NCBI GenBank assembly: GCA_963733195.1
Contig: CAVTCR010000044.1
Span: 1 to 34,868 of the forward strand
DNA length: 34,868 nucleotides
From: an uncultured delta proteobacterium
GTDB lineage: Bacteria; Desulfobacterota; Binatia; Bin18
Direction: 5' to 3'
The notes beneath the pieces were generated by a model. It was not told where the DNA came from, ran no database searches, and saw only the letters and a program-made list of their open reading frames with translations. This document shows positions 1,704-33,305 of the stretch, one piece after another. Each line of letters starts with the position of its first letter. The first letter of the stretch is position 1. Both the position numbers and the translations under genes were made by a program.

Positions 1704-1759
1704 TCGTTACCTCGTTTGCGTTTCTTGACGCCATTTAGTAGTCAGAGTGTCTGTAAACT

Positions 1760-1855
1760 ATGAAGGATGAACGCTGAACGATGAATGGTGGAAGAAGGCC
1801 TCTCCTGCCGTCCCCTTTTGCATTCTGCATTCATCATTCTGTATTCCGCAATTTC
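1760..1855. repeat. Inverted pair of heptamer tandem arrays (STRR-like) in a divergent intergenic region
   Basis: ATGAAGG ATGAACG CTGAACG ATGAATG GTGGAAG (1760-1794), then CATTCTG CATTCAT CATTCTG TATTCCG CAATTTC (1821-1855). CATTCAT is the reverse complement of ATGAATG. Confidence 0.8.
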
Positions 1856-12613: not shown

Positions 12614-15600
12614 CTATGATTGCAACTTCTCCAACAATGCCTTCGCCTCTTGCAGATCCTTCGTGTCAAACCCTTCCGTAAACCAAGTGTAGACCTCAGA
12701 TAGCATGTTGTGTGCTTCGTCAAGCTTGGCGCGTGCTTCGTGGTGCGTGGTACGTGAGGCGGCCTGCGTCGCTTGTTGTTGTCGTAGGCGGACTAAGCTC
12801 ATCACCGCACGCAGTTCGAGGGATTTGGCCTGTTGTTTTTGGGCGATGTCGATGGCTTTAAGAAAACACGCCTCTGGAGACGAAGGGGCGATTGGGAGAT
12901 CGGGCGATGGGGCGACCTCGGACTTTTCGCCCGTTCGCCCGTTCACCGTTTCGCCCGCTCGGAGCGATAGCTCTCCGTACAGTCGATACAGCTCTGCCTC
13001 ATAGTAACGCTCCCCAGTTTTGTCCACTACAGTTAGTGCTTCGTTCAACGCGCTCAGTCCTTCTTCTGACCTGGCCTGCCTTTCTATACGCTTCAGCCAG
13101 CAGGGCGAGATGGTACGGCCGGTACAGTGCCATCCCTGTGTCCTGGCTGGCGGCCATACCCTGGTGTATCTGTTGGATGCCTTCCTCTACCTGCCCCTGC
13201 TCGGCCAGTGCCCAGCCATGCTGTACGATGGCCCCTGCCAAAGGAACCGAAAACCCCTGCTCGTTAGAAAGCGCGATCAGTGCTTCGGCCTGCTGCTCAA
13301 CAGCCTGTGCCTCGTGCAGGAACTGACGGAGTATAGTATCCAGGAACCAGACAAGACGCCATGCTTAAAGGGTGATCAATCTCCTGAGCCAGGGTCAGTC
13401 CTGCACGACTCCGCTTCAGCGCCTGGTCTGGATACCCGAGTAACCACAAGATGTTCGCCAGATGAAGGAGACTGAAGACCCCGAGATCCACTCCCATAAA
13501 AGCAATGGCAGAGCGACGCTGCCCAGGGTCAGAAAGGGCAAGGGCTTGCTCACAGTGGGCGCGGGCCGAGACCAACTCCCCCAAAGAGTGCAAGACCGAC
13601 CCCAATCCAAAGTGTGCAACTGGGAGGAGAGCAGAGTCGTGCGCGCGCTGGGCCAGGGGGATGAGTCGCTCAGCCAGTTCACGCGCGGTCTGTAGCTCTC
13701 CCCGAAACAAATAAAATCGCCGCGCGCCCCAGAGCACTGGGACAGAGCTGAGGAGTCTCACCGATCTGCTGGCACAGCTCAAGAGCACGACTGTGGACTG
13801 CTCCCACTTCTGGAGCTGTAGGGCCTTTCGTGAGCGCCAACGGCGTCGCCAGAGCGAGTTGCAGCGTGAGTTCCTGTTGCGCACGCTCAGGGGTGTCTGC
13901 CAAGGTCTGGAGGAACTCTAGGGCTGCGGTGAAGTGGGTGATAGCTTCTGTAGTCGCGGACCGCTGCACCGCCTGTTGGCCAGCGCGGTAGAGATAGTCT
14001 ATCGCTTTCGCGGTGTTGCCACTGCGACGTGTAGTGATGCGCCAGATCATCTGTAGTGGTCCTCTAAGCTGATCTGTAGAGCGCTTCTATCGCTTGGGCG
14101 GTGTGCTCGTGTAATGCTTTACGCCGCTCGTGCAGTACCGAGCCATAGGCGACTTCCTGGGTCAGCGCATGCTTGAAGATGTACTCCACTTCCGGAAACG
14201 CCGGCTGCTCGTAGAGAAATTCTTTGCGTTGGAGCGATGACAGCAGGCGATACACCTCATCTTCTGGCTGCGGAACTACGTGCCGGAAGACACTCAGCGG
14301 AAACTCGCGCCCGATGACCGCCAGTTGTTGCAGCAAGGCTTTTTCCTCTGGCGCGAGGCGGTCAATTCGCGCCGCAAGCACGCCTTGCACCGTGGGGGGG
14401 ATATGCAGGTCTGTCGGCGCGCGCTGCGTCACGGCGGCATAGCCGTGCCCCGTACAGCCTCGCGGATCAATCCCCTCTTCCAATAAGTCCTGCACCACTT
14501 CTTCCATGAAGAACGGCGTGCCTTCGGTCTTCTCCAGAATCAGATGCTTGAGGGCCGTGAGGCTGTGGCATCGTTCCCCTAAGCACCAGCAGCACGTCAG
14601 AAATTCTTCGGCTTCGGCTTTGCCAAACGGCGAGAGGCGTAGCTGCGTGTAATACGTCTTTGTCCCCCACTCGTGCCGGTATTCGGGACGGTAGTTCACC
14701 AGCAGCAGAATCCGTGTACTGGCTACGCTTTCACTCAACGTATCGAGAAAGCTTTGTGTCTCACTGTCAATCCAGTGCAGGTCTTCAAAGATGAGCACGA
14801 GCGGCTGGTTGAGACTCTCGCGCAGGAAGAGTTTCTTGAGTGCCTCGAACGTCCGTCGGCGCCGGATCTGGGGGTCCATCTGCTGCAACGGCGAGGGCGG
14901 CTCTTCAATGCCCAGCAACGCATAGAGGTAGGGGAGCGTATCCTCTAAACTGCGGTCCAGCTCCAACACCTTGCCGATGACTTTCTGTCGTTGCGTACGG
15001 TGCTCATCCTGAAGTTGAATCTGAAAATAGCCCTTCAGCAATTCGATCACCGGCAGATAGGGCGACGCTTTGCCATGCGAGACGGAGTAGGCTTGAAGCA
15101 CGAGGCAGGTAGTGCGAGTGTAGGGGCGTATTGCAATACGCCCCTACGAATTCGTGAAACAAGCGCGACTTGCCTAACCCTGGCTCGCCCATGACCCCCA
15201 CGATTTGACCCATGCCCCAGCCTTGGCGTGATCGAGTGCCTGCTTCATCTGTTCCATCTCACTCTGCCGGCCTACGAAGCGTGTCAATCCACGGCGAATG
15301 GCGACTTGTAGCCGCGTGCGTAAGGCACCGACGCCGAGCACTTCGTACACATTGAGTGGCACTTCCACCCCTTTGATCTCCGCGGTCCCCAATGCTTTCA
15401 GCTCAAAATAGCCTTCGACTAATTTCCGGGTGTGATCCGTAATCAGAATCGAACCGGGCGTCGCCATCTGCTCCATGCGGGCTGCCAGGTTCGTTGAGTG
15501 CCCCACCGGCACGTAATCGGTATGCAAATCATCTTTGCGAATCGAGCGCACCACCACTTCCCCGGTGTTCATCCCGACCCGCATCGCCAGCGGTACGCCG

Positions 15601-16208
15601 TGTTTGAGGCGTACCTGATCACTATAGCGATGCATCTCCTCTTGCATACGCAACGCCGCATACAGCGCACGCTGGGGATGATCCTCATGGGCAATCGGCG
15701 CGCCAAAGAGCGCAAAGATGCCATCTCCCAAGGCTTGCGCCACATAGCCTTCATAGCGATGCACTGCGTCCATCATGAGCTGCAGAGCCGGATCAATAAT
15801 CGCTCGCGCCTCTTCGGGATCAAGTCCTTCAATCAGCGCCGTCGAGCCTTTGAGATCAGCAAACAGCGCCGTGATCGTCTTGCGCTCACCGTCGCTCGTA
15901 CTACGGGCTTCAAGTGCCGCTTGTTCGGCGCGGATACGTTCAGCTAGATGAGGAGGGGTATAACTAACAGGAGCTTGTGGCTGACCTGTCGTGCTGGTGA
16001 GTAAGGAAGAAGAAGTGCCGGTGCCCTTCCAGACGAGGACCTTGCCACCTTCATCAATTGCCACTTGTTGCCCGTCGATCAGCTCCTCTGTGAGGACGTC
16101 GAGTTGCTCATCGGTGAGGGAAAATTCGAGCTTGAGCGCACGATAGGTGATCCGTCCCTTGCGCTGTAAGAGCCCGCTGGCCTGATCGACAATCTCTGAA
16201 AACTTCAC
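12614..16208 (-). CDS. Class III nucleotide cyclase-STAND/AAA ATPase-TPR protein, copy 1 (multiple frameshifts)
   Basis: N-terminal GRITYRALK domain, LFADLKGST/LGDG/TNLAARME cyclase, Walker A GEPGLGKS, Walker B FEDLHWID, YIFKHALTQEVAY, TPR region and C-terminal [18 protein letters not shown]. Spread over several ORFs. Confidence 0.88.
15120..15147. repeat. Perfect 28-bp GTAG-type REP palindrome inside coding sequence
   Basis: GTAGGGGCGTATTGCAATACGCCCCTAC equals its own reverse complement and reads VGAYCNTPL on both strands. Confidence 0.92.
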
Positions 16209-16224
16209 TCCTCCTCCTATGTCG

Positions 16225-17238
16225 TTAGTCTCGATAGCCTAAGACAAATCCCACCGGCAACCCTCCTCCTACTTCCGTGCGACTCGCCCCGCACTCGATC
16301 AGCATCTGTCTCAGCTCGGCGGACGAAAAACTACGTCCCCCAGGGGTGGTTCCGTGAATCATGGCGCTAAAGAGCCACGCAAAGGTACTCGCCGGTTGAC
16401 CCGGTTCCGCCAGAAATTCGATGATACTGAGAACCCCGCCAGGCGCGAGGGCTGCCAGACATTTGTGCACGATCGCGCGACACGTCTCTTCTGGATAATT
16501 ATGCAAAATATGCCCGAGGAACACGGCGTCATACGGACCGCCAAACTCCACCGTACGTAAATCACCTGCTAAGCCCCGCACGCGCTCTGCTACGCCGAGC
16601 TGGGCGGCATAGTCTTGCGCCACTGGGACGATCAGGGGCCAATCCTGAGCGGTCAACCGCGCCTGGGGCAAGCGGGTGAGAGCGACGAGGCCGTACACGG
16701 CCGACCCACAGCCCACATCAAGTAACCGCAGCGGCGCCGCGTGACCAGAGGTCCAGCCGAGATGATCGGCCAGTGCTTGCGCCGTCGGATAGCCTAGCGT
16801 GAAGAGCGCCCGGGTGAGGCGAATAATCTGGTCGTTGGATCCCGTCCCATACTGCCACGGATCCACCCGGTGCTTCTCAGTGACCACCCGCTGATAGTCC
16901 TTGAATAGGTCGAACACCGGCGGACTTATCGTCGTGTCGACTAGGAGGCCGCCTATATAGGTGGGTTTAGACGACACCAAAAATTCAGCTGAGACCGGGG
17001 TGAGCGCATACGCTTGCGCCTGGGTGCCGAGAAACCCCAGCGCGACAAGGGCATCCAGCAGAATGCGCAACGCTTGTGGATCACCACCCACTGCGGCGCT
17101 GAGCGCCGCCACCTCGTCTGTCCCGGCGTGAATATGATCAAACACGTGGAGATCCACTCCACTTTTGAGTACTCCGGCCGCCCACAGCCCTGCCACGATC
17201 TGCATGATCGGTCCGGGTGTGATTGCTTCCTTCGTCAT
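16225..17238 (-). CDS. SAM-dependent O-methyltransferase (dimerisation + methyltransf_2 type)
   Basis: LDALVALGFL N-terminal domain, LLDVGCGSA, GDL and ILHNY. Start placed at ATG 17238 after GAGGA. Confidence 0.88.
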   Translation of the reverse strand: MTKEAITPGPIMQIVAGLWAAGVLKSGVDLHVFDHIHAGTDEVAALSAAVGGDPQALRILLDALVALGFLGTQAQAYALTPVSAEFLVSSKPTYIGGLLVDTTISPPVFDLFKDYQRVVTEKHRVDPWQYGTGSNDQIIRLTRALFTLGYPTAQALADHLGWTSGHAAPLRLLDVGCGSAVYGLVALTRLPQARLTAQDWPLIVPVAQDYAAQLGVAERVRGLAGDLRTVEFGGPYDAVFLGHILHNYPEETCRAIVHKCLAALAPGGVLSIIEFLAEPGQPASTFAWLFSAMIHGTTPGGRSFSSAELRQMLIECGASRTEVGGGLPVGFVLGYRD

Positions 17239-17307
17239 AGGCCGTTCCTCCTGTATTGCAGCCAAGAACAAAATCCCCTTCTGGGCCTGCACGTGATGTC
17301 TACTTTT

Positions 17308-18621
17308 TCAGGCTGCTACGCTGGCTAACTCTCCGATCGCTCGCAGCGTCTTATCCACTTCCTCAGGCGAGGTCAGAAGACTGGGCGCTAGCCGAGCATA
17401 GCTCGTGGCGTAGGGCGTTACGCTGGCGATAATGCCACGCTTTAGTAGATGCGCTACCACCTGCGTGGGGCTCATTCCCGCTACAGTAAAACAGACGATC
17501 CCCGCAGACAGCTCGTTAGACAGCGGCGTGTGGAGTGTCACATGGCGCATCTCCGCCAGGCCCTCCTTGGTGTGCCGGTTGAGCGCATGGATCCGGTCCG
17601 CAATACGCTCTTTCCCGATCGCCTGATGGAACTGAAAAGCTGCCCCTAACGCCCACCGATGCTCGAAGGAGTGAAAGCCTCCTGGCGTCATCAACGTACT
17701 CATCGGGCCAGCTGGCGGTGGGAGGCCCTGCAACCACGCCCGGGACGCCTCAGCCGAAAAGGAGGGAATAATAGCCGTGGCGAGGGGCCAAGCCTCAGGT
17801 TTCCCCCACACGAGCCCCGTCCCCCGTGGGCCGAATATCCACTTGTGACAGCCGGCAACGAAGAAGTCGCATCCGAGATCCGCCATGGACACATTCTCTA
17901 CCCCAAACCCATGGACACCATCCACACACAACAACACGCGGTCAGCCTCGTCGCGGCGCGCATTCACCGTCGCCAGAGCTTCTGCCATGCGACGGATGGG
18001 CAGCTTGACGCCCGTGCTTGAGTGCACCCAAGTCACAGCCACGACGCGCGTTTGCGGTTGCACCGCCTTGACGAGCGTGTCGACGATTTCCTCTTGCGAC
18101 GCGGTTGCAGGCTGCTGGTAGAGCGAGACCTGACGCACTGTGCCTCCCGTCCGCGCGGCGCGTAGCTGGAGCGACACGGCCGTGGAATAGTGATCGTGAG
18201 TCGTGGTGAGAACCTCCTGGCCGGCACGGAGCGCTATCCCGCCATAGAGTAACCCTAGGCCCATCGTGGTGCTATCCGTCAAGGCAATCTCCGTCGGTTG
18301 CCCACCCAGATACTCCGCCGCCGCTTGCAATACTGCCCCTTCCAACCGCTTCCCGTGGTCATGTAAGTATTCAGCGGGGTTTTCATCTAACTTGCGCCGA
18401 TGGGTTTCAATCGCCTCCCGTACAGGAGTTGGGTGAGAAGCGAGAAGGAATCCAGCCATGTGGATGCGGTCGCGCGTCAGCGGGAACTGCGCACGGACGG
18501 TCTCCCAACGTTCGAAGGATGGGGTGCTGTCGGCCTGGGCGTTCAGCGGTGAAACCCGCGGAGCAACCGCGCTGGCTCCGACCAGCAAGCCTGTGCGGAC
18601 CAAAAACATTCTCCGATCCAT
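17308..18621 (-). CDS. Tat-exported class V PLP-dependent aminotransferase (PvdN-like)
   Basis: MDRRMFLV...AQA twin-arginine signal; STTMGL, VDGVHG and GCHKWIFGPRGTG with the PLP lysine; AGGAG RBS. Confidence 0.88.
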   Translation of the reverse strand: MDRRMFLVRTGLLVGASAVAPRVSPLNAQADSTPSFERWETVRAQFPLTRDRIHMAGFLLASHPTPVREAIETHRRKLDENPAEYLHDHGKRLEGAVLQAAAEYLGGQPTEIALTDSTTMGLGLLYGGIALRAGQEVLTTTHDHYSTAVSLQLRAARTGGTVRQVSLYQQPATASQEEIVDTLVKAVQPQTRVVAVTWVHSSTGVKLPIRRMAEALATVNARRDEADRVLLCVDGVHGFGVENVSMADLGCDFFVAGCHKWIFGPRGTGLVWGKPEAWPLATAIIPSFSAEASRAWLQGLPPPAGPMSTLMTPGGFHSFEHRWALGAAFQFHQAIGKERIADRIHALNRHTKEGLAEMRHVTLHTPLSNELSAGIVCFTVAGMSPTQVVAHLLKRGIIASVTPYATSYARLAPSLLTSPEEVDKTLRAIGELASVAA

Positions 18622-18775
18622 ATTGTGCCTCTCCTTTTGCGTCTTCCGTGTCTCGAAAAAACGGCTGACAGGGCGAGGAGTCAGAGGTACAGCAAGTGAG
18701 CTCACATCCCCGGAATCACCGCTGCCGTGAGTTGTTCCTTACGGAGGGACTGCCCATGTTTCCTCACACCATAGC

Positions 18776-21700
18776 TCACTGACTTACCTCCTCTAGCAGC
18801 GCCTGGGCCTCTTGCAAGTCTTTGGTGTCAAACCCTTCGGTGAACCAGTTGTAGATATCGGATAACAGCTGGTGAGCTTCGCTTTGCTTGCCCTGTTGCT
18901 GCCACAGACGGGCGAGGCTCGTGGACGCGCGGAGTTCAAGAGACTTAGCTTGCTGCTTTCGCGCGATGTCGATGGCTTTGAGAAAACAAGCTTCGGCCTC
19001 TGACTCCGACCTGTCGTCGCCGTTTAACTTTCGATCCTTGCTCCCTACTCTTTGGTCCTTGCTTTTTTGAGCAAGCGTCAGCTCTCCTTTAAGCCGATAC
19101 AGCTCGGCCTCGCTACAAGCGCTCCCCAGTTTTGTCCACGAAAGCCAGTGCCTCGGCCACCACAGTCAAGCCCTTCCTCTACCTGTCCCGCCTTTCCCAT
19201 ATGCCTCGGCCAGCAGGGCAAGATAATGAAGACCTGATAGACTCTACTCCGTAGCCTGGCACGTGGCCAGGCCCTGACGCAATCTGGGTAATGCCCTCCT
19301 CGCCCTGTCCCTGCTCGACTAGCGCCCAGCCCCGCACGATCGTCCCCAGCGCCAACCAGAACGGAAACCCCTGCTCGGTTGACAGGGTAATCAGTCGCCT
19401 CTGCCCGCTCTCGGGCGAGCGCCCCTCCCGGCGGAGAAGATGGAACACAGGCAGCCACAACTAAAGGCATACGGCCAGACTAAAGGGGTGAGATAACTCC
19501 TGCAGCCAAGGCTAGCTGCCTCCTGGCTCCTCTTGCAGGGCCTGGTCCGGATAGCCCAGCATACCACAGGGTCCAGGAGCCATAAGAGAAGGCAATCCAC
19601 CCTCGGGTTAGTCCTGAGACCAGACGACAGAGGGAGGGTGCGTCTGTGGATCATAGAGGGCAATCGCTCTGCTCTAAGTGTGTCGCGGGCCGAGGTAAAC
19701 TCGCCCAAGAATAGATACAAGGTGTCCCCACGGTCACGCGTGAGCTCCACAGAGGAGATACGGGTCTTGGACGCTCTGGGCCAGATGCAGCATCTGCTCC
19801 GCCAGCTCCTGTGCCGTCTGTACCTCCCCTCGCGACTACGATAAAATACAACACAGTCCATACAGCACCGGGAAGAGCTGCGGAGTTTCTCCCAGCTGCT
19901 GGCACAGTTCCCGGGCCCGGGTATAGTTTTTTCCACTTCCGGGGCCGCATAGCCCTTGACAGGCCATCAAGGCGCACCCAGGGCGATTTGTAGAGGTGAG
20001 TTCTTGCTGGACGCGCTCGGGCGTGTCCGGCAGGGCCTTGAGCACTCCAGTCCCTTGGTGAGGTGAGCTAATCGCTTCCACATAGGCCGAGCGCTGACTA
20101 GCTCTGCTCACCCGCCTGTCTGCCAATAGGGAATGGCCTGCTCTATCAAGCCCTGCCTCGGTGTAGTGATGCGCGAGGAGTTCAGGCTGGGTCTCTTTGG
20201 TATCTGGAAATCGTTCTGCCAGCACCTGAGCAATCTGCTGGTGATACTGCTGCCGCTTGCTCTTCAGGAACGATTGATAGGCCGTGTCTTGAATGAGGGC
20301 ATGCTTGAAGAGGTAGCGTGCCTGTGGCCGAAGCCCGCGTTGATAGAGCAACTCGGCTTCAACTAATTTGCTTAAGGCCGTGCTGTAAGTCAGCTTCGCT
20401 CAGCGGAGACACAGCTTGGAAGAAGTTCGTACGAAACTCTCGCCCGAAGGTCGCTCCGAGTTGGGCTACCTGTCTTGCACCGGTGCAAGCCGGTCGAGCC
20501 GCGCCAGCAAGCGAATCTTGTAGGGTGGCAGGAATCGCCAACGGTGGATGGTGCACGGTACGCTCCCACTCGGACGCCTCTACTCGACTCCCCGACTCCA
20601 GACACTCTTGGTCAACTCTTCCACAAACAGCGGCACTCCGTCGGTCTTGTCACAATCTGCTCCACTACGTCCGCTGGCAGAATCGATTTCCCGCCGTACT
20701 TTCTCGATCATTGCCTCGACATGTTCGTCCCAACCGATTGAGAGTGAGTTGCGTGAGGTAGGAACGCGGCTTCCACGGCGGTATGAACTCAGGCCGAAAG
20801 GTCAGCACCGAGAATAGCCTGGTGGTCGGAATTTGTTCCATGAAGCAGCGAAAGGAACTTCGAGCGACGACGGGTCCGCCCAATGCAGATCTTCCCAGCA
20901 CAGTACACCGTCGCCTTCCGCTGGCTTCTTCCATGATCCACTGCTACCAGGGCTTCTTGCGTCTTTTGCTTCTGTTTCTGCGGCCTCAGAGTCAGCGGTG
21001 GATACCTTGACGGGGTTGGCAACGAAAGTAAGTTCGGTAAACGAGTGGTAAGGATCAGCCTGCAGGAACGATAGAGGCTCAAGCATCTGTTCGAGTTTCT
21101 CGAGTTTGGCCTGACGTGAATCCTGTCGCGCTGAAGAGCAACGTGCGCTGCAGGACGTCGATCAGGGGATAGAAGGCACTGTTTTGGTGATACGGCGAGC
21201 AGCGAGCTTCAAACGCGTAACGTCCCTTCCGCCAGACACCTGCTCCTCGCAGTGTCTACACCAGGCGCGATTTACCAATGCCCGGCTCGCCACTAAGCAG
21301 CACCACTTGGCCCCGCCCTTCTTTGGCTTGCTCCCAGCGATCCTGCAGTAATCCCGCTTCTTGGTCACGACCGATTAAGGGAGTTAAGCGTCGTGCCCCC
21401 GGCAACCTCAAAGCGGCTCTGCGCGTTACTCTGCATGATGATAGACGGCAATCGGAGTGGCGATACCTTTGAGGAGGTGTGAGCCCAAAGGGCTGACACT
21501 CAAACAAGCCCTGGACTAGGTGCTGCGTCACCGCACTCATGACCACCGTGTCAGGCTCGGCCAAGTCCTTGCACGCGAGCAGCAATATTAGGCGTCTCGC
21601 CTAACGCCAGCATACTCCGTCTTCTCACTCGCTGCCGATCTCACCAATCACGACTAACCCGGTGTGAATACCAATGCGGACTTGGATAGGATTCGGTACC

Positions 21701-22193
21701 TCCTGCTGGAGACGAGATATGCGCTCTGACGATCTCCATCCCCGCACGAACGGCACGCTGGGCCTCATCTTCATGCGCGGCAGGATAACCGAAGTAGACC
21801 AGTAACCCATCACCCAGATATTGGGCCATGTAGCCGTCATAGCTGCCGGATCACTGCGGTGCAGGTCTCTTGATACTGCTGCACGACTTCCCGTAACTCT
21901 TCGGGATCAAGCTGTGCGGAGAGTGCGGTCGAGCCCACCAGGTCACAGAACAACACCGTGAGCTGACGCCGTTCGGCTTCCGCCCGGGAAGGAGCCACGA
22001 ACTGCGGGGAAGCCTCTGCAAGCTGCACCCGTGCCGGCTCTCCGGTGAGCGGAGTAGCGCAGGCACCGCAAAACTTGAATCCGGGCGGGTTTGCAAAGCC
22101 ACATTGTGGACAGGGATGCTGGAGGGGAGCGGCACACTGCCCACAAAACTTCATACCCTCGGGATTCGCAAACCCACAGCTCGCACAGCGCAT
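18776..22193 (-). CDS. Double zinc ribbon-cyclase-STAND ATPase-TPR protein, copy 2 (heavily frameshifted)
   Basis: [55 protein letters not shown]-like Walker [12 protein letters not shown] and C-terminal [23 protein letters not shown]. Confidence 0.85.
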
Positions 22194-22430
22194 GCCGCTT
22201 CTTTACTCTTTTAGGTGCTTCGGGGCAAGGAAAAGTTCACCTCTCTCCTTGAGGTCGCCATTTGTGACTACTTGCGCGGGCTTCGCCACACCCCAGCGAC
22301 GTATAGTAAACCGGTCTTCGTCCTGCTGGACGCGGCCTTCCTGTGAACAGTCACCTCTCCAGAGTGCGCTCCTTTTTTTGTGATCCAATCGAGCGAAGAT
22401 TTGTCGACACTCCTTTATGATCCCGGGTAC

Positions 22431-24005
22431 TCAGCGGGCGCAAATGATCACCCCTTCGTCTCCGCGTAAGCGCAGAGCGCCGCTGACCGCCTCACCCTCC
22501 CGGTCGAGAACGGTGGAGAGGATAATCTGTCCTTGGACCTCGGTGTGATTCACTGTGATGGACTCGCTCGCGAAGTTCAGCACCACCACGAATTGCTCCC
22601 GCCTGTAGGCGAGCACACGTTCGTCCGTCAGGACTGGCGCGTACCGGCCAGTTTGCAGGGCGGGTTCGGTGGCACGCAGCGACAGCAGGCGCCGGTAGAG
22701 GGAAAGGAGTGAGCCGGGGTCACGGCGGAGGGTAGCAACGTTAACCTGCGGATAGTTCTCGGCGATCGGCAGCCACGGCGCGCCAGTGGTAAAACCGGCG
22801 TGTGACCCTCCTTCCCACTGCATCGGTGTGCGCGCCGGGTCACGCCCAAGCCCGGGCACGTTTTTCCCCCAGGGATCGTGCGCCGCTGCAGGCGGGATAT
22901 GCACGTCACGCATCCCGATCTCGTCCCCGTAATACAGCGTCGGTGTGCCACGCAGGGTGAGGAGCAGCATGGCCGCCACCCGTGCCTGCCCCGGGCCCAC
23001 CCGCGTCGCGACGCGCGGGTTGTCATGATTCCCTAACACCCAGTTAGGCCAGTGTAGTCCGGCGAGCAGCCCCTCGTAGGAGTCAATCACCGGCCCGATC
23101 AACGTCGGCTGCCACGCCAACTTGACGAGCTGGAAGTTAAACGGAAAGTGAAATCCGGCCTCATAATAGGGCAGCAGCCGGGGGAGCGGCAGGTACGCCT
23201 CGCCGATCATCATGCGGTCGTCGTATTCGTCCAGCACCTGCCGCATGCGGCGAATCACGTCCCGCAGTTCTGGCTGGTCCCGCGAATACGTCGGCAGCAG
23301 TTGGTAGTACGGATCTTGCCCGGGAGTATAATCGGGGTTTGGTGGGTCGTCCCGCCAGGCGGCGTCTTTGATCAACCGCGACACCGCGTCCACACGGAAT
23401 CCGTCGACCCCGCGGTCCAACCAAAACCGCAGGACCGACAGCATCGCCTGCTGGACGTCGGGATTGCGCCAGTTTAGATCCGGCTGCTCTTTGAGATACG
23501 TATGCAAATAATACTGCCCGGTGCGCTCGTCCCACTGCCAGGCACCGCCGCCGAACACGCTACGCCAATTGTTGGGCGGCGCACCGTCGGGTCCGGGGTC
23601 GCGCCACAGGTACCACGCCCGACGTGGATTAGCGCGCGAGGAACGGGACTCTAGGAACCACGGGTGCTGGTCGGACGTGTGGTTCGGGACATAATCCAGC
23701 AGTACTTTCAAACGCAGGCGGTGAGCGGCGGTCAGCAGCGCATCAAAATCCTGCAGCGTACCGAAGAGCGGGTGAATGTCCGTGTAGTCGGACACATCAT
23801 ACCCGAAGTCCGCCATAGGCGACGGAAAGATAGGAGAAAGCCACAGGGCGTTCACGCCGAGCCAGTGCAGGTAGTCGAGCCGGCTGAGAATGCCGGGCAG
23901 GTCGCCCACCCCGTCGCCGTTGCTATCCTGGAATGAGCGCGGGTAGATTTGGTAAATGACTCCGGTCTGCCACCAGCGCGGTGGCGCAGTGATACTCGCA
24001 TCCAT
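22431..24005 (-). CDS. GH13 alpha-glucosidase / oligo-1,6-glucosidase family
   Basis: YQIYPRSFQD, DFGYDVSDY, VPNHTSDQH, GFRVDAV, IGE, NHD and RDPARTPMQW. Confidence 0.94.
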   Translation of the reverse strand: MDASITAPPRWWQTGVIYQIYPRSFQDSNGDGVGDLPGILSRLDYLHWLGVNALWLSPIFPSPMADFGYDVSDYTDIHPLFGTLQDFDALLTAAHRLRLKVLLDYVPNHTSDQHPWFLESRSSRANPRRAWYLWRDPGPDGAPPNNWRSVFGGGAWQWDERTGQYYLHTYLKEQPDLNWRNPDVQQAMLSVLRFWLDRGVDGFRVDAVSRLIKDAAWRDDPPNPDYTPGQDPYYQLLPTYSRDQPELRDVIRRMRQVLDEYDDRMMIGEAYLPLPRLLPYYEAGFHFPFNFQLVKLAWQPTLIGPVIDSYEGLLAGLHWPNWVLGNHDNPRVATRVGPGQARVAAMLLLTLRGTPTLYYGDEIGMRDVHIPPAAAHDPWGKNVPGLGRDPARTPMQWEGGSHAGFTTGAPWLPIAENYPQVNVATLRRDPGSLLSLYRRLLSLRATEPALQTGRYAPVLTDERVLAYRREQFVVVLNFASESITVNHTEVQGQIILSTVLDREGEAVSGALRLRGDEGVIICAR

Positions 24006-27000
24006 TACCGGCCCTCCGACAATTGGTGCAGCAACGCCTTGGCCTCTTGTAAGTCTTTGGTGTCAAAGCCCTCGGTGAACCAGTCGTAGATCTCGGATAA
24101 CAACTGGTGAGCTTCGTCGAGCCTGGTGCGTGTCTCGTGGTGCGTGGTACGTGATTCGGACTGCGTTGCTTGCTGTTGTCGTAGCCGAACAAGACTCATT
24201 ACGGCGCGCAGTTCGAGGGACTTCGCTTGTTGCTTTTGGGCAATCTCAATCGCTCGTAGAAAGTAGGTCTCCGCCTCTTCTACTTTCCACTCTCCACTTT
24301 CAACTTTCAACTGAAGCGTGAGCGTCCCTTTGATCCGATACAGCTCCGCCTCGTAGAAACGCTCTCCAGTTTTATCTACCATGAGCCAGCGCCTCGGCTA
24401 GCGAAGGTCAGCCCTTCCTCAGTTTGTCCCGCTTGCCCATACGCCTCGGCCAGCAGGGCAAGAAAATACGGCCGTTCTATATTTACCCCAATGGCCCGTG
24501 AGGCGGCCAGACCCTGGCGCATCTGGGCAATCCCTTCCTCTCTTTGCCCTTGCTCGGCGAGCGCCCAGCCCCGTAGGCAAGTGCCCGACGCCAACCAGGT
24601 CGGAAACTCCTGCTCGGTAGAAAGCGTAATCACCGCCTCGGCCTGCTCTTGGGCCGCCTGCACCTCTCCACGGCGGTTGATGAAACACGGCGGTAAAGTG
24701 CAGGGTAAAAGCTAGACTAAAGGGGTGAGACAGCTCCTGAGCCAGGATCAGCGCATCGTGCATTTCCGCCCTGGCCCGAGAGGGATACCCAAGCTGCCAG
24801 AGGAGTATCGCTAATTGGGTTTGGATGCCTAGACCGGTGTCGGCCCCGCCGTGCGCAAAGATAAGCGCATGGTGCTGCTGGGGGTCGTACAGGGCAAGCC
24901 GCTGTTCCAGGTGCGGTCGGGCTGGCACCCAAGTCACCGAGATTCAATAATAAGGTTACTCCATCAACTGACAGAGTCTCCAAGAGGAGGGCTGGTCTGC
25001 TGCGTGCGTGTCAGCAAGAGCGCCATACTGCTCGGCTATGCTCAAGTGCTGCGCTGGAGATTGCCGCCCGCATGAAATATAAATACACACAGTCCCCACA
25101 GGACAGGGAAGAGTTGAGGGGAGTCTCGCCGAGCTGCTGACAGAGTTCCGTGCGCCCGTCTGTATGGCTTGCTCTACTTCTGGGGCGGCATAGCCCCTTG
25201 AGTGGCGATCAACAGCTGGGCCAAGGGTAATCTGCAAGAATAATTCCTGCCGGGTGCGCTCGGGGGTGTCCGGCAGGGTCTTGAGCAGTTCAAGGGCAGT
25301 AGTGAGATGAGTGATCGCTTCTGCGTTCGCCGAGTGTCGCACTGCTTGTTGCCCAGCCAGCTAAAGATACTCCACGGCTTTTGCGTATTCCCACTGCGAC
25401 TGTAGTGATACGCCAACTCGCTGTAGTGGTCTTCAAGGTTTAGTGGTGAAGAGCTCTCAATGGCCTGGGCGGTGCTCTCGTGTAAGGCTTTGCGTTGCTC
25501 CTGCAGCACCGTGCCGTAGGCCACCTCCTGCGTCAGGGCATGCTTAAAAATGTACTCGACTTCCGGAAACGCGGGCTGTTCGTAGAGAAATTCTTTGCGC
25601 TGGAGGGAGGCAAGGAGGTGGTACAGTTCGTCTTCGGGCTGGGTGATCACCTGACGGATCAGACTCACCGGGAACTCGCGCCCGATGACCGCCAGCTGTT
25701 GCAAGAGAGCTTTCTCGTCTGGCGCGAGGCGGTCGATACGGGCGGCGAGCACGGCTTGCACGGTGGGAGGAATATGAAGGTCAGTGGGCGGGCTTGTGCG
25801 TCGAGCGCGAGCAGTGCCTTCCTACAGTCGCGGACCAACACGCCTTGCTCGACCAACTCCTGCACGATCTCTTCCATGAAAAACGGCGTGCCTTCAGTCT
25901 TTTCTAGGATGAGGTGCTTGAGGTCATGCAGGGGCGATCGGCCGGTCGCCCCTACGGTGACACCTAAGCAAGACATCCAAGAAATTCTTCCGCCTCCGCT
26001 TGGCCGAAGGGCACTAACCGCAACTGCGTGTAATACGTCTTCTGTCCCCACTCGTGCCGATACTCCGGGCGATAATTAACGAGCAACAGAATTTTGGCAC
26101 GAGGCCACCCCTTCACTGAGCGTGTCTAAGAATCCTTGCGTCTCACTATCAATCCAGTGCAAGTCTTCAAAGACCAGGACCAGCGGTTGGTTCAGACTCT
26201 CTCGCAGAAAGAGTTTCTTCACTGCCTCAAACGTCCGCCGCCGCCGAATCTGTGGGTCCATCTGCTGGAACGGCGAAGGTTGTTCTTCAATCCCCAGCAA
26301 GGCGAACAGATAGGGCAGCGTGTCTTCTAAGCTGCGGTCGAGCATCAGCACTTTACCGGTCGACTTTCTCTCGGCGCTTGCGCTCGTCGTCTTGGGGCTC
26401 AATGCCGGAAGTAACTCTTGAGTAACTCAATCACCGGCAGATACGCCGACGCTTTCCCGTGTGAGACCGAGTAGGCTTGAAGCACGAGGCAGCTAGCTTG
26501 CGAGTGTAGCGATTGCAATAGCCTTAGAATTCGTAGAAACAGCCGCGATTTCCTAACCCCGGCTCGCCCATCACGCCCACGATTTGCCCATGCCCGGCTT
26601 TGGCCTGCGCTAACGCCTGCTGCAGTCTGCTCCATTTCGCCTGCCGGCCGACAAACCGTGTCAACCCGCGGCGGGCAGCGACTTGTAACCGGGTGCGTAA
26701 CTGGTCCCGCCCCAAGCACTTCGTAGACATTCAGCGGCTCTTCGACGCCTTTGATCTGCGGTCTTACCTAAGTCTTTGAACGCAAAGTAGCCATCGGTGA
26801 GTTTGTACGTGTAGGCCGTAACAAGAATCGAACCCGGCGCGGCCAATTGTTCCATCCGCGCCGCTAAGTTCGTCGAATGTCCGATCGGGACGTAATCCGC
26901 ATGCAAGTCATCTTTGCGAATCGAGCGTAGCACCACTTCCCCGGTGTTCACGCCCACACGCATTAACAGTGGTGGATAACCTTTCTGACGAAGAGTGTCA

Positions 27001-27608
27001 GTATAGCGGCTGCATCTCCTCTTGCATGCGTAGCGCGGCATACAGGGCCCGTTGGGGATGATCTTCATGGGCCAGCGGCGCGCCGAACAGGGCAAAGATG
27101 CCATCGCCTAACACCTGGGCGACGTAGCCCTCGTAGCGATGCACGGCGTCCATCATGAGCTGCAGAGGCGGGGTCAATAATGGCGCGGGCCTCTTCGGGG
27201 TCGAGTCCTTCGATCAGGGCGGTCGAACCTTTAAGATCGGCAAACAGCGCCGTGATCGTTTTGCGTTCACCATCGGTGACAGTCGCCGCGCGAATGCGTT
27301 CAGCGAGGTGGGGAGGAGTATAACTCACGGGACTAGGGTCTAGCATCTGAGGTCTAGGGTCTAAGGGAAGGACGGGTTTTGACTCTGGACTCTGGACCCT
27401 AGACCCTAGGACTGTCTTTGCCGACCCACACCAGCACCCTCCCATCTTCGTCAATGGCCAGCCGCTTGGCGTCTATGATTTCCGCGGTGAGGTCTGCTAG
27501 ATAGTCATCATCTATCTCCAGTCGACGCTTCAACGCGCGATAGGTGACACGCCCATCACGTTGGAGCAGCATCAAGATCTGTTCGAGATGTTCGTCAAAC
27601 GTCATCAC
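24005..27608 (-). CDS. Class III cyclase-STAND ATPase-TPR protein, copy 3 (multiple frameshifts)
   Basis: GRVTYRALK N-domain, LFADLKGST, TNLAARME, FEDLHWID, FKHALTQEVAY and [18 protein letters not shown]. Its stop overlaps the GH13 start (TAATG). Confidence 0.88.
25928..25955. repeat. GTAG-type REP palindrome inside coding sequence
   Basis: Minus strand GTAGGGGCGACCGGCCGATCGCCCCTGC, a near-perfect 28-bp hairpin encoding VGATGRSPL. Confidence 0.85.
27333..27408. repeat. Inverted heptamer tandem arrays in the N-terminal linker of copy 3
   Basis: CTAGGGT CTAGCAT CTGAGGT CTAGGGT CTAAGGG ... GACTCTG GACTCTG GACCCTA GACCCTA. Confidence 0.85.
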
Positions 27609-27678
27609 TTCCCCTCACCATTCGCCTATGACACGAGTACGTGGCTTTCCCGTAATCGTGCGAGCCCCTCTCCTACGG

Positions 27679-28077
27679 TTAGGTGAGATTGTCAGTGTCG
27701 TGTAGATCTTGGCGAATTTTCACCCGTTCCCTGCTATTCATATCCAACACCTGTACCGTCGCTCGTCCTACCGGTGTGAGACCTTTAATAACGGCGCCCT
27801 GAAAAACAAAATGTTCGGTCCATATCTGTTCACGCGGATTGAACAATGCGGCCAGTGTTCCCATCACGGGGTCTATACCCGCCAGATTTGGTCCCTTTTT
27901 TAAGTTACATCCTTGGCACGACAGCGAGAGGTTCTCCGGCGAATCGTCGCCGCCGTGTTGTTTGGGTCGGATATGGTCAATGTGGTACGGGATGTAGACA
28001 TCGCGTTCCGCCAGGCCGCAATATTCACAGCGGTGGTACGCCCGCTCGCGGACTAGTCGTCGGACGCTTATCTCCAT
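27679..28077 (-). CDS. HNH endonuclease
   Basis: CEYC...HIDHIRPKQHGG...NLSLSCQGCNLKKG, LFNPR..W..HF and TPVGRATV..L.MN. Confidence 0.92.
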   Translation of the reverse strand: MEISVRRLVRERAYHRCEYCGLAERDVYIPYHIDHIRPKQHGGDDSPENLSLSCQGCNLKKGPNLAGIDPVMGTLAALFNPREQIWTEHFVFQGAVIKGLTPVGRATVQVLDMNSRERVKIRQDLHDTDNLT

Positions 28078-28361
28078 CAGACTGAAGGTGCCGCCGTCGA
28101 CTGGAGAAATTTGCGCGCCTTGGCTTTGAGTAAGGTCATCACCTGATTGACCTGGACGTAACTTTCGTACTCGGCGCGTTCGTCTGGCGTGAGCGTTCCT
28201 TCGTTACATTTGTCGGCCAGCTCTTCGACCCGTGCGACGACGGCTTCGTTCGCTTGCAGGTTAACGAGTTTCTGGGCAACCTCCGGGGTTAAGCAGGCGC
28301 CAAAAGGTTCCAGTAAATCATCAAGCAACGTGCCTTCGGAGGGAGTTGTGTCTGTCGCCAT
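28077..28361 (-). CDS. Small helical protein coupled to HNH (antitoxin-like)
   Basis: 94 aa; ELADKCNEGTLTPDERAEY; TGATG stop/start overlap with the HNH gene; GAGGT RBS. Confidence 0.75.
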   Translation of the reverse strand: MATDTTPSEGTLLDDLLEPFGACLTPEVAQKLVNLQANEAVVARVEELADKCNEGTLTPDERAEYESYVQVNQVMTLLKAKARKFLQSTAAPSV

Positions 28362-28491
28362 GTCGCATACCTCTAGGTGTCCTTGTACCTGAGAGCGAAT
28401 CGACGGTCCACCAGCCGTGGCGTGCGCTCCCTTTCATTTGTTCTCGGACAACATGAAGAGCTCGGAGAATTTCACATGCCCTCCGCACAGG

Positions 28492-29436
28492 TTATGACAC
28501 CCGTCGATACTTCGAAATGCTGCGCAGTTCCCGCGGCGGCTCCAGGTGTCGTCCGCGGATCGAGTAGGACACCTCTGCCACGTAAATGTCGCCATGGGAA
28601 TCCACGGCAATGCCGTGCGGCGCAATGAATTGACCCGGCCCTTCTCCCTCTTCGTCGGCACCGAAGCGGCAGACCATGCGACCCTTCAGATCATAGATGG
28701 AGACGCGGTGTCCCAAGCCAGGGGCGTCATCCACGCCCCCCATGCCATTGAGTTCCCCCACGTAGATATGCTCCCCCCATAGCACCATGGCATCGGGCCG
28801 ATGGATATTATTCCACATGGTGATGAAGGCGCCCTGCGGATCAAAGATCTGGATGCGGTGCGCCTCGCGGTCCACAACATAGACGTGGTCGTCGTCGTCA
28901 ATGGCGATATTGTGCGGACGGATAAATTGACCGGCATCAATGCCAGGGCGACCCCAGGAAAATTTGTACTCGCCTGCCTCCGTATAGACGTGGATACGGG
29001 AGTTGCCATAGCCATCGGACACGTAGACGTCACCGGTGCGTGGCCTGATCGCGGCTGACGTGGGCCGGTTGAACGGTGCGCCACTCCATTTTTTAGCAGG
29101 GGCGTTACGTTGGCCGATTTCCAGCAACTGGCCACCGTCCGTGGTAAACTTCTGGACTGTATGAATGCCGTCGTCCGCCACCAACAGGGAACTATCATGG
29201 GCGATATACAGGCCATGGGTACGGTCGCTAAAATACCCCTGGCCGAATGAGCGGAGGTAGGTTCCCTCGCAGTTGAACACCATGATTGGATGCTGACCGC
29301 GGGTGAGCACGTAGACATTGTCCCGCGCATCAACGGCGACGCCGGGGCATTCGTGAAAAGTGACGCCCTCGGGCAGCGTGCCCCAGCCATCGACATACTC
29401 ATAGCGAAAGTCTCCGATTCCATACACTTCACGCAT
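28492..29436 (-). CDS. NHL-repeat beta-propeller, peptidyl-alpha-hydroxyglycine amidating lyase-like
   Basis: THGL, FNRPT, VSDGYGNSRI, GQFIRPHNIA, DREAHRIQIF and GQFIAPHGIAVDS. Confidence 0.88.
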   Translation of the reverse strand: MREVYGIGDFRYEYVDGWGTLPEGVTFHECPGVAVDARDNVYVLTRGQHPIMVFNCEGTYLRSFGQGYFSDRTHGLYIAHDSSLLVADDGIHTVQKFTTDGGQLLEIGQRNAPAKKWSGAPFNRPTSAAIRPRTGDVYVSDGYGNSRIHVYTEAGEYKFSWGRPGIDAGQFIRPHNIAIDDDDHVYVVDREAHRIQIFDPQGAFITMWNNIHRPDAMVLWGEHIYVGELNGMGGVDDAPGLGHRVSIYDLKGRMVCRFGADEEGEGPGQFIAPHGIAVDSHGDIYVAEVSYSIRGRHLEPPRELRSISKYRRVS

Positions 29437-29501
29437 GACGTGCCTCCCTTCGCGGCGGATAGAGCCTCAACTCGGCTTCCCCAGGCCGATAATCCGCTCT
29501 C

Positions 29502-32500
29502 TTACGATAACGTATCAAGCAGTGCCTTGGCCTCTTGCAAATCTTTCGTGTCAAATCCTTCGGTAAACCAGTTGTAAATCTCAGATAACAGATTGTGAGC
29601 TTCGGTTTGCTTGCCTTGCTGCTGCCAGAGGCGAGCCAAACTCGTCACTGCTCGTAGCCCTAACGATTTCGCCTGCTGCCTGCGGGCAATTTCAATCGCC
29701 TTGAGAAAACACGCTTCGGCTTCGCCTTGGGTATCGGGCACCGGGGCTCGGGGTTCAGTAACTGTTTCCCGTTGCCCATTGCCTGTGACCTGTTGCTTTT
29801 CCCGTTGCAGCAGCAGTTCGCCGGTGAGACGGTGGAGTTCGGCTTCGTAGAAATGTCCTCCGGTTCTCTCCACAGCCGTCCGCGCCTCAACCAATACCGT
29901 AAACCCTTCCTCGACCTGTCCGGTTTTTCCATACGCCTCGGCCAGCAGTGCGAGACTAAGGGCCGTCGCGACTCCGCCCCGGTGGCCCGAACTGCAGCCA
30001 GGCCCTGGTGGATCTGCTGATGCCTTCCTCTTCTTGCCCCTGCATGGCCAGTGCCCAGCCATGCGCGAGGATGGCCACTCCAAACCCAGTCGAAAATCCC
30101 TGCTCGTGACAGAGTACGTGCAGGGCTTCGGCCCACTGCTTGGACGGCCTGCTATATCGTGCAGGTACTCATGGACCTCAATAGTAAAGGCCCAGACCAT
30201 AGCCGTGCTAAGAGGATGAGTCATTCCTGAGCTCGGGTCAGCGCTTCGCGACTGCTTTCCCTAGCCTGATCCGGATAGCCCAGCATCCACAAGACCTGAG
30301 CCAGAGAGGCGAAGGCAATGACACCCATATCCGGCCCATAGCGATGCCTTACAGCGCGCTGCTGCCGAAGATCGTAGAGGGCAATCGCCTGTTCGAAGTG
30401 TTCCCGGGCAGAGCCAAGCTCACCGAGCAAGAACAAGGGTAGCCCCAGCGCCACATGGGCTTCCACGAGGAGAGCCGGGTCTTGTACGCTCTGGGCCAGC
30501 CGCAGCAGTTGTTCCCCTAGCTCACGGCCTGTCTGTAACTCTCCCCGCCCCGTATAGAAAGTGCGCAGCCCCGCGAGCACTGGGAAGAGCTGCGGCGTTT
30601 CCCCCACCTGCTGACACAACGCTAATGCGCGGGCATAGACCGTGCCCACTTCCGGGGCCGCAAAACCTTTGGTCGCCATCAGCGAAGTGCCCAGGGCAAG
30701 TTGCAAGGTAAGTTCTTGCTGGGCACGCTCGGGGGTGTCAGGAAGCGTGTTCGAGCAACTCCAGGCCTGTGGTGAGGTGATTGATCGCTTCCGCATTGGC
30801 CGACCGCTGCATCGCCTGTTGTCCCGCCTAGCTGCAGATACTCTGGCTTTCCCCGTGTTGCCACTGCGGCTGTAGTGATGCGCTAACTCGCTGTAGTGCT
30901 CCTCCAAGCGAGGCGAGTACAGCGCTTCGATCGCCTGGCGCGGTGCGCTCATGCAAGGCTTTGCGCTGTTCGTGGAGCACCGTGCCGTAGGCCACTTCCT
31001 GTGTCAGAGCGTGCTTAAAGAGATATTCGGCTTCTGGAAACGCCGGCTGTTCGTAGAGAAATTCTTTGTGCTGCAGCGAGGAGAGCAGGCGATAGAATTC
31101 GTCTTCAGGTTGGGGGAGGACGTGGCGCACGAGGCTCAGCGGGAACTGGCGCCCAATGACGGCGAGTTGCTGCAGCAGAGCTTTTTCGTCAGGAGTAAGT
31201 CGGTCAATACGGGCCGCGAGGACGCCTTGGACGGTCGTCGGGATATGCAGGTCCGTTGGTAGGGCTGCATCGGCGCGCCGTGCCCCTACAGCTCGCGGAT
31301 GAGAATCCCCTGTTCCACTAACGTCCTGCACCACTTCTTCCATGAAAAACGGCGTGCCTTCGGTCTTCTCCAGGATGAGTTGTTTCGAGGGTCTGTAGGG
31401 GCGCACCGTGCGTGCGCCCGCTGTGGGCCGACACGTCGGTCGTCCACCTACGGAAGCCGAGCAGCGCATCAAGAAATTCTTCCGCCTCGGCTTTGCCAAA
31501 CGGCGCTAACCGTAGTTGGGTGTAGTACGTCTTCTGCCCCCACTCGTGCCGATACTCCGGGCGGTAGTTCACGAGTAGCAGGATCTTCGCTGAAGCCACA
31601 CCCTCACTCAATATGTCCAGGAAACCCTGCGTCTCATTGTCAATCCAATGCAGGTCTTCAAAGATCAGGATCAGCGGTTGGTTGAGACTCTCGCTGAGAA
31701 ATAGCTTCTTGAGCGCCTCAAACGTCCGTCGCCGGCGAATCTGCGGGTCCATCTGCTGCAACGGCGAGGGCTGTTCTTCAATGCCCAGCAGGGCAAACAG
31801 ATACGGCAGCGTGTCTTCCAAGCTGCGGTCAAGCATCAAGACTTTCCCACCGACTTTCTCTCGGCGTTTGCGTTCATCGTCTTGAGGCTGGATGTCGAAG
31901 TAGCTCTTGAGCAACTCAATCACCGGCAGATACGGCGAGGCTTTGCCATGCGAGACGGAGTAGGCTTCCAGCACCAGACAGCCACTCTGGGAGAGCAGCT
32001 TGAATTCGTAGAACAGGCGCGACTTCCCTAACCCCGGCTCGCCCATCACCCCCACGATCTGCCCATGCCCGGCTTTGGCTTGCTCCAACGCTCGCTGCAT
32101 TTGCTCCATTTCGCTCTGCCGTCCGACAAAGCGCGTCAGCCCCCGCCGGGCCGCCACTTGTAACCGTGTGCGTAACGGCCCTGCCCCCAGCACTTCATAG
32201 ACGTTGAGCGGCTCTTCGACTCCTTTGATCTGCGTCTGCGCCCAAGGCTTTGAACTCAAAGTATCCTTCGATCAGTTTCTGCGTGTAGCTCGGTAATCAG
32301 AATCGAGCCTGGTGTGGCCATCTGTTCCATCCGCGCCGCTAAGTTGGTCGAATGCCCCACCGGCACATAGTCCGTATGCAAGTCATCTTTACGAATCGAG
32401 CGGACCACCACTTCGCCGGTATTGATCCCGACCCGCATCGCCAGCGGCAAGCCTGTTTGAGCCGCACGTGATCGCCATAGCGGCGCATCTCCTCTTGCAT

Positions 32501-33089: not shown

Positions 33090-33305
33090 GTTATTCCCCT
33101 TGCCTGAGCGGATTATAGGCGAGACGAACCGAGACGACTATAGGAATTCTTCGTGCAACCTTTGACCGAGATACCACTGCGCGTTATGATTTCGCGTAAG
33201 AAGACATAAAAGGAGAGATACCTCGCTCCGCGATCACATATACGTAGCGCCGACCACAGCGCCTGCCTTCAACAGTGAGGTCAGTGATTGCGCAGAGGTC
33301 ACATT

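Follow-up and report, generated by a model that had tools for sequence, protein, structure and literature searches.

Short tandemly repeated repetitive (STRR) sequences occur in heterocystous cyanobacteria and comprise three canonical unit sequences. More widely, heptamers are reported to form the most abundant class of long simple sequence repeats in many bacteria, and a link to polymerase slippage by 7 nucleotides (nt) has been proposed (PMC4679880, PMC4692102); described cases are GGGNATC repeats in Xanthomonas and Nostoc (PMC4692102) and TAACTGA repeats in Beggiatoaceae and cyanobacteria (PMC4679880). As characterized in these reports, the GGGNATC, TAACTGA and STRR cases are mainly intergenic and the few that fall within open reading frames (ORFs) lie at protein ends (PMC4692102, PMC4679880); the few TAACTGA arrays in ORFs are translated as LSVISYQ, mostly at the protein periphery (PMC4679880). 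Short repeats are also described inside genes. The poly-psi region of neuO in Escherichia coli K1 is a perfect AAGACTC array of 2–93 copies at the 5' end of the gene, in which single-unit slippage acts as an on/off switch (PMC3046976), and Rickettsia palindromic elements (RPEs) are discrete sequences of about 150 bp, of few conserved families, that sit in frame inside genes (PMC10969869). Here we examine a 34,868-nt stretch of DNA (the window), which is the entire contig C44 of an uncultured Binatia genome of 6.95 Mb in 87 contigs. On its minus strand lie five paralogs of one gene, belonging to a family of signaling proteins that combine a class III nucleotide cyclase, an AAA_16 (STAND-type) ATPase and TPRs. 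Our subject is a loop in their C-terminal TPR region, the TPR-turn loop, which in three of the copies is built from tandem 7- or 8-nt units.

The loops of the five copies were bounded by their conserved flanking helices, and the self-identity of each was calculated on the coding strand at lags of 1–16 and compared with 2000 shuffles. The loop of copy 1 (12881..12961, minus strand, as are all loops described here) is 81 nt long and in frame, and it consists of two inverted arrays of 8-nt units, which Tandem Repeats Finder (TRF) placed at 12881-12915 and 12926-12961. Its lag-8 identity of 0.63 was reached by none of the 2000 shuffles. It also folds as a two-armed hairpin (-45.4 kcal/mol, z -3.67, reached by 0 of 200 shuffles). 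The 36-nt loop of copy 3 (24278..24313) contains five heptamers in frame (TRF period 7, 5.0 copies, 85% matches), with a lag-7 identity of 0.83 that again no shuffle attained. In copy 4, an in-frame loop of 84 nt (29724..29807) contains twelve heptamer rows of two types; the lag-7 identity is 0.56 (0/2000 shuffles), and TRF at score 30 did not report the array. Hairpin tests of the copy 3 and copy 4 loops found none, the fold of the latter being no better than that of shuffled sequences (z 0.05). The loop of copy 2 (19001..19072, 72 nt, in frame) has a weak 7/14-nt periodicity: its best lag, 14, gives 0.45, a value reached by 108 of the 2000 shuffles and hence not clearly beyond chance; lag 7 gives 0.40, and TRF returned no row for this loop. 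Copy 5, a member of a divergent subfamily, has a plain six-residue turn at about 34455..34472, as read from the translated window and its twin on contig C3; the lag profile there is flat, and no periodicity was found. The loops of copies 1–4 all have lengths divisible by three and are free of stop codons.

A first-pass annotation of this DNA had described octamer arrays in inverted orientation in copy 1, heptamer arrays in copies 2, 3 and 4, no insert in copy 5, and an ORF that reads through the loops of copies 1, 3 and 4. This description is partly confirmed, holding for three of the four loops, and the coordinates given were within a few bases of those remapped here. The reading frame passes through copy 2 as well, where the heptamer periodicity is weak. 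An AlphaFold2 model of the C-terminal region (predicted template-modeling score 0.74) places the loop between helices at residues 54-70 and 117-134 with a per-residue confidence (pLDDT) of 53-59, and the loop is thus predicted to be disordered.

Is the periodicity a property of the DNA or of the encoded peptide? The same loop was collected from other members of the family. Both anchors could be paired at 121 loops in the source genome. From the matches listed that reached the loop, 67 loci in 20 related genomes were chosen, of which 60 gave 61 loops and 7 did not yield the anchor pair; the best 80 public loci added 80 loops, and removal of 4 duplicates left 137 distinct loops from related genomes. 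In the 122 related loops of at least 36 nt, the best lag was 7 in 78, 14 in 16, 8 in 7, 11 in 7 and some other value in 14, such that lag 7 or 14 was best in 94 of them. As a control, 244 equally long pieces of the flanking coding sequence were treated in the same way: lag 3, 6 or 15 was best in 124 of them and lag 7 in just 8. The median identity at lag 7 was 0.56 for loops vs. 0.23 for flanks, and 101 of the 122 loops exceeded the top flank value. The earlier assertion that the period is a DNA-level feature is therefore borne out. Units of 8 and 11 nt are also present at the TPR turn. Three heptamers in frame make up one seven-residue peptide repeat, and the peptides encoded by the loops are indeed seven-residue repeats in which K, Q, S, V and P are abundant. 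In homologous loci labeled Anaerolineales, Nitrospinota, Entotheonellaceae, Actinomycetota, Rhizobiaceae and Clostridia, the turn measures 21–24 nt (7–8 residues) and has no repeat; expansion of the loop by repeats is therefore a derived feature of the lineage.

Nearly all of the related loops (134/137) are in frame, in agreement with the first-pass proposal that selection keeps the frame. The source genome does not conform to it, as only 55 of its 121 loops are in frame. The lengths there leave remainders of 0, 1 and 2 on division by three in 55, 36 and 30 cases; formally, this spread contradicts a conserved frame, but the sequence in question is probably inaccurate. All five window copies are split among several frames and the non-family neighbors are intact; genome-wide, 3 of 103 single-gene family regions are unbroken, with a median of about 6–7 breaks per gene. 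Contigs from independent public runs, aligned at 90% or more, have exactly one base fewer at positions 13068, 13354, 13745, 14027, 19394, 21844 and 30907, the first four of which are frame junctions of copy 1; no such single-base differences between these contigs and the window were listed in the neighboring genes. A search for reads of the source sample listed 17 sequencing runs, none of which shared half of the words (best share 0.09) and none of which was an RNA run; four of these runs yielded nothing but related contigs, of at least 90% likeness.

A segment of the window (28525-34865) has a twin at positions 1-6323 of contig C3. The two are 92% identical, with about 99% identity in neighbor genes and about 88% in two family genes, and they could represent two strains, a segment that was duplicated recently or a single locus that was assembled twice. 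In about 2 kb of neighbor genes the twins differ by ~1% and have no gaps; inside the family genes there are 8–30 mismatches per 200 nt, an approximately tenfold greater difference, and 63 single-base gap columns are found in copy 4 by itself. Substitutions within the family genes nevertheless fall at third codon positions in 161 of 259 cases, a bias that marks functional genes. When out-of-frame loops were compared with their nearest in-frame counterparts, 246 gap runs were counted, 141 of 1 nt and 4 of 7 nt. Breaks of 1 nt are spread along the whole of the family genes, and in related genomes most family genes stay open for more than 1000 residues. The single-base lack in the independent contigs, the pattern of the twins, the 1-nt gaps and the open genes of relatives point to consensus errors rather than to decay or switching, and we regard the broken frames as probable consensus errors of the assembly. 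Three observations do not sit well with a simple artefact: the inserted bases at 12 inspected sites lie mostly outside homopolymers, frameshifts occur in both directions genome-wide (125 vs. 106), and the number of breaks is only weakly tied to the identity to the nearest paralog (Spearman 0.17, p 0.09, 103 regions). Homopolymer errors were rejected as the cause on the first ground; a one-directional bias, suggested by the lean of the window copies toward +1, was rejected on the second; and cross-mapping between similar paralogs was set aside on the third. There is a warning in these data: nearly every family copy in the assembly resembles a pseudogene, but the breaks look like those left by consensus errors. 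It is unsafe to count pseudogenes, test frames or tell of a “decayed family” on the basis of such metagenome-assembled genomes.

The repeats are not confined to the family. TRF detected 967 arrays of period 7 in the whole genome, vs. 205 of period 6 and 332 of period 8. They have a median of 3.9 copies and 84% matches, and they are found in family gene regions (265), outside long ORFs (429) and in other long ORFs (273); 114 of the last group fall within the initial fifth of the frame between stops and may precede the true start. One pair of heptamer arrays in the window is intergenic (1756..1850; TRF 1756-1785 and 1819-1850, minus-strand fold z -2.06) and is a non-coding form of the same repeat population as the loops. 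There are 100 canonical unit classes within the family and 248 outside it, and 62 are common to both, where 21 were expected. The most recurrent class accounts for 48 arrays, and a few classes recur dozens of times. The genome-wide families of STRR-like repeats anticipated by the first-pass annotation do exist, and their limited repertoire of units is common to the family and to other parts of the genome; the precise units of the window loops are another matter, being found in 0–1 arrays outside the family.

Nor are the arrays confined to one place in the protein. We mapped 351 family arrays onto an intact paralog of 1209 residues. The N-terminal linker ahead of the cyclase domain holds 118 of them, the region of the cyclase/AAA junction (residues 250-399) 44 and the TPR turn 110; a further 65 lie at a second C-terminal insert or the gene end, and 9 between residues 400 and 1049, so that domain cores are hardly ever occupied. 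Outside the family, 13 array-bearing long ORFs were checked, and all 13 are open and contain Pfam domains. Their products include GlnE, CysRS, ProRS, LeuRS, MurC, a UvrA-like protein and three histidine kinases; where the position was compared, the array falls between domains or at the protein end. Linkers of GlnE, CysRS, ProRS, LeuRS and the histidine kinases contain or adjoin in-frame arrays, with inter-domain examples in CysRS (C73:199854-201326), GlnE (C3:42716-45937), ProRS (C56:110944-112719) and LeuRS (C31:21401-22780). The CysRS linker holds 5 copies of one heptamer in the source genome and 3 copies of that unit in a genome of the same genus; in another genus a different unit is present in 4 copies, and further relatives lack an array at this place. 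All of these are in frame. The earlier notion of a single fixed site of deposition fails on this evidence, as four linkers of the family protein and linkers of unrelated housekeeping genes are occupied.

The loop types appear to be inherited in part. An 81-nt octamer loop like that of copy 1 is present in a genome of the same genus, where it is equally long and 85% identical across the full 81 nt, and this loop type recurs in several genomes with a characteristic flank signature. On a quick-method tree of 129 flank sequences and 99 alignment columns, loop class changes 32 times, compared with 46.7 for shuffled labels (sd 1.6, minimum 42); this result describes clustering of loop class and not a rate, since related sequences share labels and the columns number only 99. 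On the strength of the shared octamer loop and this clustering, separate deposition in each paralog, as first proposed, is in general not supported. The 258 loops from all genomes fall into 133 clusters, 117 of which are singletons. No close look-alike of the copy 2 or copy 3 loop was found among the 258, and the sole look-alike of the copy 4 loop is its twin on contig C3; turnover is therefore real. Only 4 loop pairs have flanks that are at least 80% identical, too few for comparing how fast loops and flanks evolve.

These repeats resemble STRR-type sequences in several respects. The hosts of the latter are cyanobacteria and the relatives in the present case are metagenome-assembled genomes labeled Binatia or Deltaproteobacteria. 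Head-to-tail 7-nt arrays were detected by TRF in both the window and the genome, and they are dispersed, with period 7 in clear excess over the neighboring periods (967 vs. 205 and 332). Like the STRR, GGGNATC and TAACTGA repeats as described, they consist of tandem 7-nt units in arrays of approximately four copies at hundreds of loci and are lineage-specific (PMC4692102, PMC4679880). The differences are equally plain. The known repeats are reported as mainly intergenic and as having one or a few units per genome (PMC4692102, PMC4679880), whereas the loops are coding, 429 of the 967 arrays are outside long ORFs, and unit classes run to the hundreds; moreover, a sizeable fraction of the arrays is translated, at constant internal positions (turns and linkers) in a family with more than 100 members and in housekeeping enzymes. 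The loops share with neuO, as it has been described, a coding heptanucleotide repeat of which three units equal a seven-residue repeat in a disordered, tolerated stretch (PMC3046976), but they are short, imperfect, internal, nearly always in frame in relatives and devoid of unit-wise switching. With RPEs and miniature inverted-repeat transposable elements they have in common the tolerance of small repeated DNA at permissive gene sites (PMC10969869), and some loops are two-armed hairpin modules; unlike these elements, they comprise many different 7- and 8-nt units and have no conserved element sequence, as the 133 clusters among 258 loops attest. A literature search, which did not cover supplements, found no paper on this cyclase-STAND-TPR family or on coding heptamer arrays in Binatia. 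The small-repeat habit is already known; its setting in a protein loop of a large signaling family of a Binatia lineage is new.

We favor, with a probability of roughly 0.6, a lineage-wide, STRR-like heptamer process that seeds arrays everywhere, with selection retaining the in-frame ones at permissive sites. In this scheme, the lineage would generate tandem arrays with a strong preference for 7-nt units and, less often, units of 8 or 11 nt; the likely mechanisms are replication slippage and, for the inverted two-armed forms, template switching. Arrays would arise genome-wide and, inside genes, would be kept only in disordered linkers and turns, provided that they were in frame and stop-free, after which three retained heptamers would be translated as one seven-residue peptide repeat. 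The TPR turn would be a permissive surface turn filled with such STRR-like short tandem repeats: an ancestral turn of 7–8 residues between the last TPR helices would have been enlarged to 12–54 residues, and the resulting loop types would then travel with paralog subfamilies at a slow turnover. The loop would accordingly be mostly neutral filler rather than a tuned sensor element, and the process is best read as neither a site-specific deposit nor a switch.

Several findings weigh against this scheme. The units are non-random, and the few recurrent classes and the 62 shared ones (21 expected) suggest the spread or selection of particular units. The filter on stop codons is modest: on the coding strand, 185 of 245 units lack a stop, vs. 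69% of all heptamers. The counts of array positions come from a single genome, the family genes of which are of doubtful accuracy. The strong hairpins, found in 22 of 89 loops, and the same two-armed shape in intergenic DNA raise the prospect that some loops are inserted modules. The tree, built by a quick method on its 99 columns, still requires 32 changes. Finally, slippage has no direct support at the TPR-turn loop itself; differences in unit number between close alleles were seen only in CysRS and at one related locus, which falls 7 nt short of its nearest look-alike.

The hairpins lead to an idea that follows on from the first-pass annotation, namely that a dedicated or mobile process inserts ready-made two-armed modules of 7- or 8-nt repeats at preferred targets, the TPR turn being one. 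Two-armed modules are present in both coding and non-coding DNA: in the loop of copy 1 (z -3.67), in the N-terminal linker of copy 3 (z -3.62) and in the intergenic arrays at 1756-1850 (z -2.06). Fold z-scores below -2 (from mononucleotide shuffles) were obtained for 22 of 89 related loops of at least 60 nt, vs. 3 of 89 flanks. The restricted unit set common to the family and the rest of the genome, the different units held by the same CysRS linker in different genera, and the entry of a perfect 28-nt palindrome into copy 1, which indicates that small elements do invade these genes, are also in keeping with insertion. But the median loop z is -0.22, and most heptamer loops have no hairpin. The units are hundreds in number (100 classes in the family, 248 outside) and no single template fits them; neither conserved ends nor target duplications were seen; the exact units of the window loops occur 0–1 times outside the family; and loop classes cluster on the tree, the copy 1 loop keeping its length across genomes. 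We therefore consider insertion of modules unlikely. An adaptive role, in which variation in length and sequence of a hypervariable sensor-domain loop would be selected for recognition as in immune-receptor diversification, likewise strikes us as improbable. It has in its favor the great size of the family (about 150 C-terminal domains, 629 kb, in 6.9 Mb), the roughly tenfold greater difference between twins inside the family genes with its 161 of 259 substitutions at third positions, and the location of the loop in the C-terminal TPR region of a protein with cyclase effector, STAND ATPase and TPR parts. However, like arrays populate the N-terminal linker, the cyclase/AAA junction and linkers of housekeeping enzymes and hence are not special to the sensor surface, the loop is predicted to be disordered, and PADLOC yields only weak matches to the cyclase domain. 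A hypervariable sensor loop, the term used at first for this segment, remains an interpretation. Diversity-generating retroelements were set aside on the pattern of variation alone, which consists of repeat units and not of adenine-specific substitutions.

The unit length, not being a multiple of three, also invites a comparison with contingency switches, in which each paralog would be switched on or off by gain or loss of one 7-nt unit, after the manner of neuO in E. coli K1. Out-of-frame loops (66 of 121) are common in the source genome, and the related locus that is 7 nt shorter than its look-alike is out of frame. Yet the arrays are short and imperfect (median 3.9 copies, 84% matches), 134 of 137 related loops are in frame, only 4 of the 246 gap runs measure 7 nt whereas 141 measure 1 nt, and the same 1-nt breaks run all along the genes. 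This explanation is close to refuted. Equally remote is the converse, that a seven-residue peptide repeat is what is selected and that the 7-nt period is its by-product. The loops do translate to such repeats, with their abundance of K, Q, S, V and P; a repeat selected at the peptide level, however, predicts a 21-nt period, and lag 7 is here equal to or stronger than lag 14. Furthermore, the same unit classes are found in non-coding arrays, and 8- and 11-nt units occupy the same site.

If seeding and retention are the correct explanation, a mutational habit at the DNA level, and not selection at the protein level, can write protein-loop sequence at scale: in well over 200 genes, drawn from many genomes, a TPR turn of 7–8 residues has lengthened to a maximum of 54, and aminoacyl-tRNA synthetases are affected in their linkers by the same process. 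The unexplained phenomenon of heptamer repeats is extended to an uncultured soil lineage and to coding DNA, and the arrays furnish a natural map of insertion-tolerant positions in these proteins. A bolder proposal is that Binatia-type bacteria have an active, lineage-specific process that writes 7-nt arrays and two-armed modules, exploited by the cyclase-STAND-TPR family of more than 100 members to diversify its sensor-region loops. We think this rather doubtful; if true, the loops would be a repeat-driven counterpart of immune-receptor diversification, and the roughly tenfold higher divergence of family genes between near-identical segments would be explained.

Further arrays in the window lie at other sites of the family genes. 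A second C-terminal insertion site, of 14 residues after a conserved LVRLRQQQ and with period 7/14, was identified by TRF in copy 1 (12727..12756, minus strand) and copy 3 (24124..24153, minus strand), and the insert is present in many paralogs; unit classes like those at this site (TQHATRN-like peptides) appear in unrelated ORFs elsewhere in the genome. The N-terminal linker of copy 3, ahead of the cyclase domain (27329..27413, minus strand), comprises two inverted heptamer arrays (TRF 27329-27363 and 27381-27413) that fold into a hairpin of -31.5 kcal/mol (z -3.62, 0 of 200 shuffles). In copy 4, the corresponding linker (32826..32882, minus strand; TRF) has a heptamer array followed by a short 8-nt array and gave no fold signal (z 0.15). 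The perfect palindrome inside copy 1 is located at 15117-15144, shortly past the P-loop, and causes a +1 frameshift. When up to 2 substitutions are allowed, its 18-nt core is found at 16 places in the genome, and 10 of these lie in family regions. In contigs of three independent runs, there are 2 extra letters behind position 15112, which would make the palindrome insert 30 nt long and in frame.

The genome is 93% complete with 4.5% contamination and is therefore taken to be a metagenome-assembled genome. In two intact paralogs elsewhere in it, Pfam recovers Guanylate_cyc, AAA_16 and TPR in that order, and the cyclase domain of the family matches solved cyclases. The C-terminal domain as a query returned 226 tblastn segments in the source genome, and the nearest public loci are from metagenome-assembled genomes labeled Candidatus Binatia or Deltaproteobacteria bacterium. 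The nearest NCBIfam model is TIGR03903 (TOMM system kinase/cyclase fusion), which aligns with residues 116-1078 of a paralog (E 1e-178) and ends just ahead of the loop. The cyclase, AAA and TPR parts align, but the score, 596.5 bits, is below the curated cut-off of 705.75, and the family is without the N-terminal kinase domain: the match begins at profile position 279, and Pfam found no kinase domain in the intact paralogs.

The genes themselves, all on the minus strand, were delimited by ORFs and tblastn. Copy 1 (12614..16208) encodes the class III cyclase, AAA_16 STAND ATPase and TPRs in five frame pieces (tblastn frames -1, -2, -3, -1 and -2); copy 2 (18782..22193), in which two of the single-base differences noted above fall (19394 and 21844), and copy 3 (24017..27605) are each in several pieces. 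Copy 4 (29499..33110) is broken, and of copy 5 (34252..34868) only the 3' part, with two frame breaks, is present before the contig ends. Elsewhere in the window, a stand-alone response-regulator ORF (11154-11516) and the receiver domain with which the neighboring histidine-kinase ORF (9686-11002) starts share a near-identical N-terminal stretch, which suggests a local duplication. Two pairs of small adjacent ORFs, at 27679-28361 and 33288-34156, neighbor family copies; each consists of an ORF of ~132–141 residues with an HNH-like motif, recognized by eye, and a partner of 94–147 residues.

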